Positions 25,802 to 55,857 of a DNA stretch of 64,000 nucleotides are shown piece by piece (position 1 is the first letter of the stretch; each line of letters begins with the position of its first letter). Position numbers and translations under genes: made by a program. Origin of the DNA: Methanobacteriota archaeon (lineage in GTDB: Archaea; Thermoplasmatota; Thermoplasmata; SG8-5; JAGLSY01); contig JAEHCO010000002.1 in assembly GCA_020697715.1 (NCBI GenBank), positions 224,001 to 288,000 of the forward strand. The letters are read 5' to 3'. The notes under the pieces were generated by a model. That model saw only the letters and a program-made list of their open reading frames with translations, was not told where the DNA came from and did no database searches.

Positions 25802-25907
25802 CTGATCGGTTGTAGAATTGGTGGTATAAAAAGATATGTTCATTATGATATAGTCTAGCTTATAGCCTATACATGGGAATTTTCAGATCATTTAGGGACA
25901 GATAGTT

Positions 25908-28900
25908 CTAAACCAGAGATTCATCGCAGATCGGACATATGATATCAGAAGATCCGACTATGGCACCGCAAGCGGGACATTCCTTCTTTTCTTCTTCGAC
26001 AGTTCCAACCATTGCACCACACAGGAAACATTCTGTGGAATCAGCATCAAGACTTGCTCCACATTCGGAGCAATCCACATGTTCTTCCTCGGATGGCTCT
26101 TCCGTGACAACTGAATCCTCAATATCTATATCGGGTTCAGCCTCTATCATTGGAACTTCAACACCATTCTCTTGTGGTATGTCTGCCCCGTCGAATAATG
26201 TGTCACACACTGGACATTCTCCTGCATCCAAGTCCACGAATATACCGCATCCTGGACATTTCTTGTGATCTTCATGCTCGGTTGGAAGCTCGGCTCCAAG
26301 ATCATCCTCTTCTGGAATATCCGTATCTGGTGAAGCCAATTCCGGTTCTGCTATCTCTTCTGTATCTGGCTCGGCTTCTATTTGCGTATCAATGGGAGTA
26401 ATGACCTCTCCGCAAAGGAAACATTCTGTTGAACCCGCTTCGAGGGATGCACCACAGCTTCCACAATCGACATGTTCTTCTTCTACGGCCACAGCTGTGG
26501 TCTCCACGATGGTCTCGGCTTCCAGAGCTTCTGTTTCCACTGGTTCTTCGATCTCTGTCTCTATGGATTCAGGCTCTGCCTCCAAAGTCTCTGTTTCCAC
26601 AGGTTCTATTTCAGCATCGACCTCTTCTGCCTCAGGTTCGGTCTCTATCGGATCATCGGTCTCAAATGGAGCTGCCAGATCATCCTCGGTAAGAGCTTCT
26701 TCGATAGTAGCTGGAGTTTCTTCTTCCATCAGTGGTTCTTCAATAATTGGTTCAGTGCTGATAGCTTCTGCCTCGTCTAGATCATTCAAATTAAGATCAT
26801 CTTCAATTTCCTCTTCAGGTAATTCAAGCTCAGAAACCTCTTCAATTTCAGGTTCATCAAGAACAGGTTCATCCTCCACTTCCTCGGGTATGTCCAATCC
26901 TAGATCTTCCTCTATGACATCGAGATCATCTGCCTCTGATATCTCTAAATGTGTTTCCTCAAAGACTTCCTCTTCGAGAATTTCCTCCTCATCGACCTCA
27001 TCAGCAAGGATCTGTTCAGATAATGCCTCTATATCGGCATCTTCAGGCATGGCGGAATCATCGATCAACTCGTCTTCTTCTCCATACTCTTTCTCTTCTT
27101 CTTCAATAAGAGTTAGGTTGCAGTTTATACAGTTGGTCATATCTTCTGAGACCTCGACACTGCACTGAGGACATTCTATGAGTTCCTGGCCGATCCTGTA
27201 TGATATGAACCAGAATGCGAATCCAATCAATACCAATACCCATCCTGCAAGGCTGGCAACAACATCAAATGGCGGAGCACTTCCTCCTACTGACTGACTT
27301 TCCACGCTTATTCCTCTAAGCCATACTGAAAATGAAGTAAAGAATATTCCTATGAATATGGTAATGATACCTCTGTAGAACCATGTGTCCTCATTGACCT
27401 TTCTAGGTGTACGATCAAGCCCAATGACCTTCTCCCCACAACTGGGGCAGATATGTGCTGTTGGCTGTACAAGGGTTTCGAGCCCATCCCATTCTTTCTC
27501 TGGCTCTATCTCCTCGGCTATTTCAATGCCATACTCGACACCACATATTGGACAATGTTCTTCATCATCTGGACCAAAATGAGCTCCACAGACAAGACAT
27601 TCCTTGTCATCTTCGTCTTCCTGATCGAGAATGGACATTTCTTTTTCCAATTCTTCTGTGACTCCAGCATCATCTATATCTATGTCCATGAGAGCATCTA
27701 CCTCTGGTATGGCCTCATAACTCACTTCTTCCGTGGTCTCTTTTATAAGTTCGACCACTGCGAAACAATTTGGACATGTGTCTGTATCAACTGGCAGGGG
27801 GCAATCGCATGATCCACATTTAATATATAATGATAGGTCCGCCCAGCATTCGGTACATTTCTCAACGTCTCTCTTGATCGTGCTTGAACATGATGGGCAC
27901 TTCATCTCATCATCTGCGAGTTGCGGAACCTCTTCTTCTATTATGCCATCAACCACATCTTCCATCTCTTCACTAAGATCTTCTGGCGTGGATGTTTCAA
28001 GTGGAGGTAGATCATCATCTTCTGGAGTGAGAACCTCTATGGTCTCCTCTTCTGTGATGATGGTCTCTTCAATGACCTCAGTCTCGTCAGTGACACCCTC
28101 TAGTTCCTCTTCAGATATTGCATCTTCAATTGGCTGAGCTCCATCTGCAATGACCACTGTGCCACAAAGGAAACAATCCTTCGCATCAGCGTCAAGCGAG
28201 GCTCCACAGTCATGACATTCGATGTGAGCTTCCTCTGTTTGTTCTGCAATGGTCTCAGTTTCCATGACTTCGGCCTCTACAGGTTCTTCCACCTCTGCCT
28301 CTACTGGCTCTGCTTCCACAGTTTCTTCTACATCGGCCATTTCTTCTTCAATAGGAGATCCATCTGGTTCCATCTCGGGTTCAGCTTCTGGAACTTCCTC
28401 TTCAGAGATATCTGCATCAGGCGACATATCTTCGTCACCTGGCTCTTCCACGGTCTCTGTTATTTTCTCTGTTGAAATTGAAGCTGTTTTGATGATGGAA
28501 GCACCGCATAGGAAGCATTCATCAGAGCCATTATCTTGTAGAGCACCACATTCCGGGCACTCATTATGAACTTCTTGCTCTGCTTCAACCTCTTCTGATG
28601 GTTCTTCATCAATTGTATCTGGAGTAATTATTGGTATGGCCGCACCGCATAGGAAGCATTCATCACCACCATTCTCCTGTAGAGCACCACATTCTGGGCA
28701 CTCGCTGTGAGCTTCTTCTTCTATTTCGGGAGCAATATCTACTTTGAGATCAACTACTTCACCGCAAACAGGGCAGTTATCTGAATCAATTGCTATCTGT
28801 GCGCCACATTCTGGGCAGTCTGCTTCAGCCTCTGGTTCAATAACAGCTTGAGGTGCATTGAACTCTTCCTCTATCTGCGCACCACAGATCGAGCACGATG

Positions 28901-40097: not shown

Positions 40098-40172
40098 GGG
40101 CGCGTAGCCTAGCCAGGATATGGCGCTAGCCTTCTAAGCTAGAAGCCAGGGGTTCGAATCCCCTCGCGTCCG
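40098..40172 (+). tRNA. tRNA-Arg(TCT)
   Basis: Acceptor GGGCGCG/CGCGTCC+G; anticodon arm CTAGC-cttctaa-GCTAG; T arm AGGGG-TTCGAAT-CCCCT; 75 nt; CCA not encoded. Confidence 0.95.
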
Positions 40173-40309
40173 TTTTTTATTTTTATATAATTAGAGGGCG
40201 CTAGGTGGATTCGAACAGGGTTCGATGAGATTTTTCTGAATGAAATGGAGAAAAAGCGAGCAAGACCGGGATGCTGGAGGCGGACAGGTCGTTGATCCCC
40301 TCGCGTCCG
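40173..40309 (+). mobile_element. 137-bp structured miniature element ending in a duplicate of the tRNA-Arg 3' end
   Basis: ATCCCCTCGCGTCCG at 40158-40172 is repeated at 40295-40309. GGATTCGAAC-agg-GTTCGA-t-GAGA at 40207-40230 matches the start of unit 1 at tRNA-Leu. Confidence 0.65.
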
Positions 40310-54639: not shown

Positions 54640-54740
54640 GATAATTTCAAGATATAAGGATATCGGCGGAAAATATACACAATCCAATCAAACATTATAT
54701 AAACATCTTGATTTTACAGGGTTTACCCAAAGAACACCAT

Positions 54741-54824
54741 GCGGGGATAGCCAAGCCTGGTCAACGGCGCTAGATTCAGGGTCTAGTTCTTAGTGATTCG
54801 CCGGTTCGAATCCGGTTCCCCGCA
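54741..54824 (+). tRNA. tRNA-Leu(CAG)
   Basis: Acceptor GCGGGGA/TCCCCGC+A; anticodon arm CTAGA-ttcaggg-TCTAG; long variable arm; T arm GCCGG-TTCGAAT-CCGGT; 84 nt. Confidence 0.95.
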
Positions 54825-54924
54825 TTTTTCATTATAGGATTCGAACGAAGTTCGATCGAGAATTTATTCATAAATTCGAGAGAGCACCGCAACGAAGTGT
54901 AGGTGCGAAATCCGGTTCCCCGCA
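54825..54924 (+). mobile_element. tRNA-Leu array unit 1 (100 bp, same type as the tRNA-Arg element)
   Basis: Core starts ATAGGATTCGAAC-gaa-GTTCGA; hairpins GAATTTAT/ATAAATTC and GCACC/GGTGC; ends with AATCCGGTTCCCCGCA (= 54809-54824). Confidence 0.65.
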
Positions 54925-55082
54925 CCTTGTTTTATAGGATTCGATAGTAGTAGTCGGTTGCCGTAAACCCACCATTTTCATTCAGCTAAACTCGAAGCCA
55001 GACGTATGCTTCGAGAATTTGGGTTTATGGCCTACGATGGGAACATCATGCCAGGGGCATATCGTTCACACGGTTCCCCGCA
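54925..55082 (+). mobile_element. tRNA-Leu array unit 2 (158 bp, structured)
   Basis: Core starts ATAGGATTCGA at 54934; ends CGGTTCCCCGCA at 55071-55082; homologous to unit 3. Confidence 0.65.
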
Positions 55083-55310
55083 TTTTTCATTTTTAGATGC
55101 GACTTCACCCATAGAACCCACGCATCTATTTTATCAAACTCATTTATGTGTTTGATTCGATAGGATTCGAAAGTAGTAAACGGTTGCCGTATGCTCATCG
55201 AAAAATATTCATCTGAACTCGAAGCAAGACGTAAGCTTCGAGATTTTGAGCATATGGTCTACGGATGTGAACATCATGCCAAAGGCATATCGTTCACACG
55301 GTTCCCCGCA
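55083..55310 (+). mobile_element. tRNA-Leu array unit 3 (228 bp; core 55160-55310 homologous to unit 2)
   Basis: Core starts ATAGGATTCGA at 55160; ends CGGTTCCCCGCA at 55299-55310, followed by CCA; two extra hairpins in 55093-55157. Confidence 0.65.
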
Positions 55311-55413
55311 CCATTTTCTCTATTTTCTAACATCATAGAGGCGGAGAGTTTAGACGAAAGTGATATAAGCAATACTTTCGATTTACTTAGGCAAGCGGAG
55401 GAGTGGCTGAATA

Positions 55414-55857
55414 ATGGATAAAAAAGGTAAGACGGTTCTATTTGCCAGTATCTTACTAATTATCATAATTATCATTGCTGTTTTTATTTCGATTACTGTT
55501 TATCAAGACACAGATGATATATTATTAACAGTATCAAAAACTTCTGCGGGGACACATTCTGTAGATCTAACGGTTTCAGGCATCAGACCAAATGGTACAG
55601 ACTCGGTATCATTAGATGATGTTGTAGCCTGGCTCTATTATAATGAATCTCAAACAATGATAAAATTGAATGAGGTTTCCCATTTTAAAGACGATTATGT
55701 CAACTTCACCTACATCGATATTAATGATAGCCAGACTATTGATGTTGGAGATGTATTCTCTATAGAATATCTCAAAGCAGGAGAATTAGGTGTTGATATT
55801 GTAAAAGAAGACATTGCTATCCTTACCTTTATAGAGTATTATTCAACCACTCCGTAG
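55414..55857 (+). CDS. Small membrane-anchored exported protein (possibly pilin-like)
   Basis: MDKKG followed by a long hydrophobic helix; beta-rich body with DINDSQTIDVGD; GGAGGAGTG upstream. Confidence 0.6.
   Translation: MDKKGKTVLFASILLIIIIIIAVFISITVYQDTDDILLTVSKTSAGTHSVDLTVSGIRPNGTDSVSLDDVVAWLYYNESQTMIKLNEVSHFKDDYVNFTYIDINDSQTIDVGDVFSIEYLKAGELGVDIVKEDIAILTFIEYYSTTP

Follow-up and report, generated by a model that had tools for sequence, protein, structure and literature searches.

Gene-less hairpin cassettes bounded by copies of the neighbouring tRNA 3′ end behind tRNA genes of an uncultured archaeal order

The window analysed here, a stretch of 64,000 nucleotides from the forward strand of contig JAEHCO010000002.1 (positions 224,001 to 288,000; assembly GCA_020697715.1), originates from a 2.12-Mb, 94%-complete genome bin of a Methanobacteriota archaeon of the class Thermoplasmata (genome G000) and carries an array of short non-coding units directly behind an intact tRNA-Leu(CAG) gene. 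The tRNA gene lies on the plus strand and extends from 54741 to 54824 according to the Rfam tRNA model (RF00005, 49.6 bits) and from 54740 to 54825 in the ARAGORN call. Its terminal 12-mer (54813–54824) recurs exactly at 54913–54924, 55071–55082 and 55299–55310, which defines units with spacings of 100, 158 and 228 nt whose tails are identical to the final 12–16 nt of the tRNA. At the first recurrence the identity extends to 16 nt (54909–54924), and the repeated segment therefore corresponds to 54809–54824, i.e. from the 3′ part of the T-loop to the discriminator. As about 3 × 10−5 occurrences of one given 12-mer are expected by chance in 500 nt, the three recurrences are not accidental. The positions of the tRNA ends and the unit lengths given in the original prediction for this DNA all hold, as do the starts of an 11-mer at 54834, 54934 and 55160, which had been described as invariant. 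Its position at these three sites is correct, but the nature of its content had been overlooked: the 11-mer contains the exact reverse complement of the tRNA-Leu T-arm (54804–54813 versus 54837–54846, 10 of 10 nt) and represents the inner part of an inverted tRNA copy, which pairs with the tail in the calculated folds.

Unit u1 (54825–54924, plus strand) is composed of a T-rich lead-in (54825–54833), a 5′ arm (54834–54846) carrying the reverse complement of the T-arm, three hairpins and a tail (54909–54924) consisting of the final 16 nt of the tRNA. Unit u2 (54925–55082, plus strand) likewise contains a lead-in, a 5′ arm (54934–54944) and a tail (55071–55082), which enclose a four-helix repeat with the helices P1 (54960–54971/55020–55031) and P2 (54991–54998/55008–55015) and a 3′ hairpin at about 55039–55069. 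The third unit of 228 nt is a composite. Its first part, u3a (55083–55159, plus strand), is a separate two-hairpin module of a distinct repeat family lying between u2 and u3b, and its second part, u3b (55160–55310, plus strand; tail 55299–55310), is another u2-type copy, 83% identical to u2 and differing from it by compensatory changes in P1 and in the 3′ hairpin. Since the body of u1 is unrelated to that of u2 and u3 is built from u3a and u3b, the array does not consist of three copies of one thing, and the idea of repeated insertions of one miniature element gives way to three different module families. An oligo-T run follows on the 3′ side of every unit. Only short open reading frames (ORFs) of 49–76 amino acids overlap with the array, the longest of which (55191–55421) has no Pfam match, and neither an integrase nor a reverse transcriptase (RT) was detected within about 4 kb, in agreement with the earlier statement that no credible ORF, integrase or RT lies in or near it. 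The neighbouring genes encode an M48 peptidase, FtsY, prefoldin and other housekeeping proteins. The comparison with Rfam recommended with the prediction yielded no family for the units: only the tRNA was significant in the array (E up to 10), and only tRNAs were reported for seven other unit loci (E up to 0.5).

The arrangement at tRNA-Leu(CAG) turned out to be one instance of a widespread phenomenon. For each tRNA gene called by ARAGORN its own last 22 nt were sought by a script in the 300 nt downstream, whereby matches of at least 10 nt were counted and tRNAs with less than 150 nt of downstream sequence were dropped; the 300 nt upstream, processed with the same script, served as control. 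Downstream copies were found for 13 of the 35 tRNAs of G000 (upstream control 0/35), for 11 of 31 in G003, a genome of the same genus (0/31), for 6 of 26 in G013 from a second family of the order (1/26) and for 12 of 29 in G005 and G008 together, which represent a third family (0/29). The complete genome G033 from another family of the class gave 0 of 31 downstream and 1 of 31 upstream. Twelve of the 13 cases in G000 were inspected by eye, and the 13th is a tRNA-Met with a predicted intron. Inverted copies of at least 10 nt are present downstream of 7 of the 35 tRNAs of G000 and upstream of none (0/35). Both this scale, with about a third of the tRNA genes involved throughout the order, and the inverted tRNA copy with which the units begin had been missed before. 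A 13-mer scan for distant copies of tRNA ends, as they would mark kilobase-sized islands, returned only local copies and noise from the shared T-loop. Upstream of tRNA-Thr(GGT), about 7 kb away and on the same strand, there is a 13-nt match to the 3′ end of this tRNA (G000 contig C28, about 136920), which could be an island boundary or a chance match.

Unit u1 is the tRNA-Leu member of a main cargo family which in G000 is present behind the two tRNA-Leu genes and behind those of tRNA-Arg(TCT), Arg(CCT), Arg(CCG), Lys, Gly(TCC) and Glu. An nhmmer search with seven seed units retrieved eight tRNA-linked copies and one truncated tandem copy, and none elsewhere in 2.1 Mb. Outside G000 the family was found at tRNA-Ser(GCT) in G013 and at tRNA-Arg(TCG) and tRNA-Ala(CGC) in G003; its spread in the order is taken from genomes inspected by hand. 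One and the same cargo is thus attached to many different tRNAs, always with the local tRNA sequence at both ends. A second host lies in the window itself: behind tRNA-Arg(TCT) (40098–40172, plus strand; ARAGORN and end-copy scan) a unit of the u1 cargo family with three hairpins (40191–40309, plus strand) ends with the final 15 nt of this tRNA and starts with an imperfect but nearly full inverted copy of its positions from about 53 to 72. The second tRNA-Leu gene of G000, tRNA-Leu(TAG) on another contig, is followed by a u1 (92% identical), by a u2 and by what is left of a third unit, and the bodies of the two tRNAs differ more than their units do. In G003, tRNA-Leu(CAG) carries u1 and a single u2, and tRNA-Leu(TAG) has no u1 and is followed by u3a-type modules and a u2. 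Even in G013, a member of another family of the order, a u1 homologue resides behind tRNA-Leu(TAG), the three hairpins of which are kept via compensatory changes. Homologues at other loci, whose absence had been named as a refutation, exist at the second tRNA-Leu, at no fewer than ten further tRNA genes and in other genomes. Searched with up to two mismatches against 301 genomes of the class, the main unit pattern was detected in all four genomes of the genus and in four others taken as chance; in genome contigs it matched four stretches of metagenome-assembled genomes (MAGs) of Thermoplasmata/Methanobacteriota, besides three bacterial MAG records also taken as chance. Two unit patterns searched in IMG/VR gave no match. 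A second, slightly different tRNA-Glu(TTC) of G003, on a 573-bp contig, is followed by a unit of yet another cargo type, and tRNA-Arg(CCT) contains an intron in G000 and none in the sister species G003.

The units share a common construction. The direct copies extend from the T-loop (positions 57–60; in the third family, 52/53) as far as the discriminator; three of them remain identical for a further 13–18 nt of the T-rich trailer, producing perfect repeats of 28, 29 and 34 nt. Between the tRNA and its copy lie 60–200 nt with one to three hairpins. The left end is formed by an inverted copy of the local tRNA positions from about 53 to 72, which is often degenerate; it is nearly complete at Arg(TCT), Lys and Arg(CCG) and is reduced to the inner part at Leu, Gly(TCC) and Glu. 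In some places the inverted copy stands alone, namely at tRNA-Thr(GGT) in G000 and at tRNA-Gln(CTG) in G003. Behind the former (C28:143933–144270) there is an inverted copy, 16 nt long, of the T-arm/acceptor region of this tRNA and no good direct copy, and two such inverted copies with their spacers have swapped places between G000 and G003. When the units were folded one by one to their minimum free energy, a stem of 5′ arm and tail closed the hairpins in all ten units at eight tRNAs. The z-scores of eight of the ten folds range from −2.7 to −7.5, those of u1 (−1.67) and the Arg(TCT) unit (−1.51) being weaker. In u1 the fold is a closed four-way junction, and 5 of its 25 pairs exhibit compensatory changes among four sequences. 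The closing helices reach 13–14 bp at Arg(TCT), Lys and Arg(CCG), where they end exactly one base before the copied discriminator, and an acceptor-like helix with an unpaired discriminator is formed in these three and in the Arg(CCT) unit. Units at Leu, Gly(TCC) and Glu have no acceptor-like helix, and only the inner 4–8 bp pair. Opposite U, the 5′ arms have A in one species and G in another, and the loop of hairpin 2 contains a pair of D′-like and C′-like boxes. An alignment of ten units of the main family (MAFFT, RNAalifold) recovered only hairpin 1, and the common fold therefore rests on the single-sequence folds and the four-sequence alignment of u1. The folds and the compensatory changes bear out the original view that the units are non-coding and structured.

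The remaining modules of the array belong to families of their own. Both u2 and u3b belong to a family of four-helix repeats spread over the whole genome; a search with a nine-copy profile detected 17 places in the genome at E below 1e-8 and 26 at E up to 1. Double-sided changes were found in 18 of the 29 pairs of the four helices in an alignment of 16 copies, in which 90.5% of the cells are paired as compared to 32–44% with the 3′ partners slid, and the covariation score was reached by none of 500 shuffles. The copies are intergenic and arranged in any orientation relative to the neighbouring genes; a riboswitch or 5′ untranslated region was rejected, as copies are found between convergent genes or antisense to both neighbours. 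A tRNA tail is present only in the copies behind the two tRNA-Leu genes, the other copies not being located at tRNAs, like the isolated 3′ hairpin module at 25858–25911 of the window (plus strand; contig C22:249858–249911; nhmmer E = 1.3e-5). One copy situated between two genes has no counterpart at the matching place in G003. In some copies (C28_68744, C34_23491, C11_314732) a different small hairpin module replaces the usual 5′ start, and one copy has both start modules, which likewise indicates that members of this family are assembled from modules that can be exchanged. Further u3a copies precede the 5S rRNA gene, follow tRNA-Phe and form tandem pairs on two other contigs. The u3a-like module preceding the 5S rRNA gene by 72 nt in the same orientation (L005:1308–1429; G000 C22:214142–214205) may be a promoter-proximal or processing element. 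In G003, u3a-type modules are placed between the tRNA and the unit at tRNA-Arg(TCT) and tRNA-Leu(TAG).

Comparison with empty sites in sister species shows the cassettes to be DNA insertions that leave the tRNA intact and duplicate its end. The clearest case is tRNA-Cys, which in G003 directly abuts the flank that in G000 comes after the tail; G000 contains 125 nt plus a 12-nt duplicate exactly after the discriminator and ahead of the split-off, gene-encoded CCA. Behind tRNA-Ala(CGC) a unit is present in G003 and absent from G000, and tRNA-Gly(GCC) is followed by a full unit in G000 and by a remnant of about 40 nt in G003. The postulate that the units are insertions is supported by such presence and absence between congeneric species, with the tRNA end duplicated. 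Orthologous units differ by a swapped hairpin 3, truncated and tail-less units occur in G001 and G002, and tandem partial repeats are present at Arg(CCG) and at Ser(GCT) of G013. The single u2 of G003 is a mosaic of u2 and u3b of G000, which points to recombination within the array. The proposed polar accumulation finds no support in the array, in which u1, phylogenetically the oldest unit and shared with another family, is the one nearest to the tRNA.

The tails follow their tRNAs. Where orthologous tRNAs of G000 and G003 differ in their 3′ ends, at Glu(CTC) and Leu(TAG), the tails carry the local variant in both cases, and the Glu units do so even though they are clearly orthologous between the two genomes. 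At Arg(CCT) of G000 a perfect 29-nt repeat exists in an old unit, the 5′ arm of which has diverged by about a quarter. Some process, be it conversion, repeated re-insertion or selection, keeps the tRNA end and the tail alike. Decay is visible as well, with two mismatches in the Lys tail of G003, one in the tail of the Leu(TAG) u2 of G000 and a T-stem part that no longer matches in the u1 tail of G013. The pair u1 and u2 is 91% identical between the species, compared with 78–85% for coding DNA sampled elsewhere.

Enzymes that might mobilise the units are scarce. G000 contains neither TnpB (PF07282) nor Cas1 (PF01867), and its single match to tyrosine recombinases (PF00589), on another contig, is taken to be the Xer homologue. 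SSV-type integrases (PF16795) were not found in any of the four genomes of the genus, nor were RTs, one of which was detected in G004 only. In G000 a 502-bp contig contains an IS110 fragment; the three other genomes of the genus have none. An IS200-type HUH transposase, TnpA, is encoded once each in G000, G001, G003, G013 and G006 and has three matches (two strong, one weak) in G005; it was not found in the incomplete genomes G002, G004 and G021, nor in the complete out-group genome G033. TnpA is the only mobile-DNA enzyme found in most of the searched genomes of the order, and according to NCBIfam it scores as IS200-type (116 bits) rather than RAYT (23.8 bits versus a cut-off of 80). The flanks of tnpA are not repeated elsewhere in the genome and thus do not connect it directly with the units, and when four tnpA loci were aligned no clear element ends emerged; for these reasons the units were rejected as derivatives of the ends of an IS200-like element. 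The tnpA gene of G000 (contig C1; L159:1447–1941) adjoins a long-arm tRNA gene, and those of G001 and G003 lie beside the same conserved segment upstream of a tRNA in opposite relative orientation. In G003 a classical integrase island is located directly behind tRNA-Glu(TTC) at a contig end (L109:1500–2247); it contains no unit modules.

On this basis we judge the chances to be about even that the cassettes are non-autonomous insertion elements of an undescribed, lineage-specific type that reside directly behind tRNA genes, the array being a stack of three. Read in the 5′ to 3′ direction, a cassette consists of a T-rich spacer, an inverted copy of the 3′ part of the tRNA, one to three cargo hairpins and a direct copy of the last 11–22 nt of the tRNA, which in the youngest-looking cases continues through up to 18 nt of the trailer. 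The two tRNA-derived ends are predicted to pair to a helix that imitates the stack of acceptor and T-stem and closes the cargo. Insertion would be carried out in trans. The machinery would recognise tRNA genes of any kind by their T-arm/3′ end and would copy the target present at the site instead of bringing along a ready-made attachment site. Such generic recognition combined with target copying would explain why one cargo family is found at eight or more tRNA species. A candidate enzyme might be the IS200-type HUH transposase, which acts on DNA hairpins. Cargo modules are swapped among cassettes, cassettes stack or drop out by recombination, and their tails evolve in concert with the tRNA.

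With more doubt than conviction, we also advance a bolder version, in which a system not described before, at work in one order of Thermoplasmata, installs small structured cassettes behind tRNA genes by copying the local tRNA 3′ end once directly and once inverted, thereby creating a made-to-measure pseudo-acceptor/T-stem helix, and in which the copies are kept in step with the tRNA. It would represent either a new class of tRNA-guided mobile elements, whose choice of target is encoded by base pairing within the element and possibly served by the HUH transposase, or a new route to small RNAs processed as tRNA mimics. Members of the IS200/IS605 family are said to select their targets by base pairing with the DNA of the element.

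Insertion beside a tRNA with duplication of its end usually betrays a large virus, plasmid or casposon that carries genes and is tied to one tRNA. Here, the same mark is found on gene-less units of about 100 nt, which occupy about a third of the tRNA genes in no fewer than three families of an archaeal order without cultured members; many tRNAs share one cargo family, and the two ends of each unit are fitted to the local tRNA. If the units are mobile, they point to an insertion mechanism which reads tRNA genes generically and copies its target, and this would bear on the origins of att sites, of casposon targets and of CRISPR-like arrays. If they are expressed, they would constitute a new family of small RNAs capped by a tRNA mimic. 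In practical terms, repeats of 16–34 nt beside tRNA genes can mislead assemblers and programs that search for prophages or islands.

Several observations weigh against insertion elements of this kind. No enzyme is tied to the units and, as mentioned, the flanks of tnpA are not repeated in the genome; moreover, IS200/IS605 transposition leaves no target duplication. The lengths of the direct repeats vary from 11 to 34 nt, unlike the product of a fixed staggered cut, and to our knowledge no known insertion chemistry accounts for the inverted tRNA copy at the left end. Unit u1 predates the split of two families, retains its structure and is more conserved than the sampled coding DNA, so that a selected function fits as well as mobility. 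For each present/absent pair, loss by recombination between the repeats could have occurred instead of gain. The tracking of tRNA changes by the tails requires an extra process, i.e. gene conversion, re-insertion or selection. Finally, the genomes are MAGs, from which plasmids or viruses carrying the enzyme may be missing.

The strongest competitor, which we nevertheless consider unlikely, holds that the units are small structured RNA genes in which the copy of the acceptor/T-stem would serve as a processing handle for RNase P or tRNase Z. The RNA would be cut from a read-through transcript or from one with its own promoter, and the cargo hairpins would be functional, possibly in ribonucleoproteins; an origin by insertion would be compatible with this. 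The closed fold common to ten of ten units, the 13–14 bp closing helices that stop one base before the discriminator copy at Arg(TCT), Lys and Arg(CCG), and the alternation of A and G opposite U, which an RNA helix tolerates, are all consistent with such a role, as are the long-term conservation with compensatory changes, the higher identity of u1 and u2 relative to coding DNA, the oligo-T run behind every unit and the D′-like/C′-like box pair in the loop of hairpin 2. Tails moreover follow the tRNA even where the unit contains no acceptor partner, as at Glu(CTC). A tRNA-like element cut by tRNase Z reportedly matures the 5S rRNA of Haloferax; this element and the t-elements of plant mitochondria are tRNA-like processing elements, and a helix mimicking acceptor and T-arm beside another RNA could direct cleavage by RNase P or tRNase Z in the units as well. 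Unlike in these elements, however, the mimic of the units is an exact copy of the 3′ strand of the neighbouring tRNA, is arrayed and varies between species, and often has no acceptor 5′ strand; at tRNA-Leu, Gly(TCC) and Glu an acceptor-like stem consequently does not form. The units are dispensable in the short term, being absent, truncated or provided with mutated tails in sister species, and perfect repeats extending 13–18 nt into the non-functional trailer indicate duplication of DNA rather than selection on RNA.

According to a second alternative, which appears improbable, the units are attL/attR scars of kilobase-sized viruses or plasmids driven by an integrase and later almost wholly deleted. 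Tyrosine integrases reportedly insert their elements into tRNA genes with identity from the T-loop to the 3′ end of the tRNA, and the units share with such elements this extent of the direct repeat, which is their classical signature, as well as the intact tRNA and the tandem stacking. The restored tRNA receives a new T-rich flank and the original end, together with CCA at tRNA-Cys, is displaced to the distal side, as expected for integration, and a genuine integrase island does exist at tRNA-Glu(TTC) in G003. That island, however, lacks the unit modules. The units measure 60–230 bp and contain no gene, no integrase fragment and no coding remnant, the insert at the array is devoid of an integrase or its remnant inside and beside it, and the genome has none apart from the Xer-like one. 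An integrase family has one target, whereas the same cargo with local ends in each case is found at eight or more tRNA species, namely Leu, Arg (three species), Lys, Gly, Glu, Ser and Ala. The hairpins are kept through compensatory changes, scars leave the inverted tRNA segment at the left end unexplained, and neither of the two unit patterns has a match in IMG/VR.

Quite improbable, too, is an origin with no dedicated mobility. Local tandem duplication, switching of the replication template at the palindromic T-arm and, the archaeon being polyploid, gene conversion would then create the hairpins next to the tRNAs and keep them uniform; these would be retained as terminators or insulators, and the likeness of the cargo between loci would stem from ectopic conversion. 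Mosaic and swapped modules, the tandem partial repeats at Arg(CCG) and at Ser(GCT) of G013, the long perfect repeat next to an old, diverged 5′ arm at Arg(CCT) and the solitary inverted copies at Thr(GGT) and Gln(CTG) are all in line with such processes. They leave unexplained, however, how the same cargo first arrived at a tRNA with an unrelated 3′ end, and the single out-group genome examined does not show the phenomenon; besides, we know of no requirement for hairpins in archaeal termination. An assembly artefact, conceivable in metagenome bins and named at the outset as what would overturn the array, has a negligible probability given that the same architecture was assembled independently in five further genomes and that the orthologous flanks are conserved.

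Returning to the non-autonomous insertion elements, their relationship to known systems is one of partial likeness. Casposons, some of which sit at tRNA 3′ ends, and CRISPR arrays rely on Cas1 to produce a target or repeat duplication. The units share with these systems a target duplication, tens of bases long, at the tRNA 3′ end, and an array that grows as one boundary sequence is duplicated again and again. Casposon- or CRISPR-like integration was nonetheless rejected on account of the absence of Cas1 from G000; polymerase and other cargo genes are also absent, the repeats, at 11–34 nt, have no fixed length, and there are no terminal inverted repeats of the casposon type. Like REP/REPIN and PATE sequences, the units are short, hairpin-based, non-coding, intergenic, multi-copy and modular, carry hairpins of conserved structure close to either end and show compensatory changes, and the only candidate enzyme is encoded by one HUH Y1 transposase gene in each genome. 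They differ in that the transposase is IS200-type and not RAYT, its gene flanks are not repeated, the units are flanked by duplications, and those linked to tRNAs carry target-derived sequence at both ends. Miniature inverted-repeat transposable elements (MITEs), which derive from DDE transposons, are distinct as well, as the ends of the units vary with the tRNA from which they derive and their repeats have no fixed length; nor did an autonomous relative with matching ends turn up, the nhmmer scan of the genome having given tRNA-linked copies only, besides which there is just the IS110 fragment on its 502-bp contig. This fragment, being the only trace of IS110 in the genus, also led to the rejection of a bridge-RNA origin. 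Integron cassette arrays resemble the units in the row of small cassettes at one anchor, in bounds formed by structured hairpins similar to recombination sites and in the conservation of structure rather than sequence, but the units have no integron integrase, are anchored at a tRNA gene and contain no ORFs. Omega-RNAs of TnpB/IscB and other guide RNAs were discarded given the absence of TnpB from G000 and of any Rfam match, and a retro-element origin given the absence of RT from the four genomes of the genus. In sum, the features found separate the units from integrase scars, MITEs, IS200-derived elements, casposons and guide RNAs, and their pattern fits no described mobile element or RNA family. 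Full-text searches of open-access papers and term searches within PMC3184786 and PMC2996986 showed no account of units of this kind.

Modular structured repeats abound in the genus. On contig C11 of G000 (about 68310–68550; L055:18660–18900) a further abundant repeat was observed, which is intergenic, about 250 nt long and contains hairpins; it is absent at the matching place in G003, in which more than 20 partial copies are distributed elsewhere.

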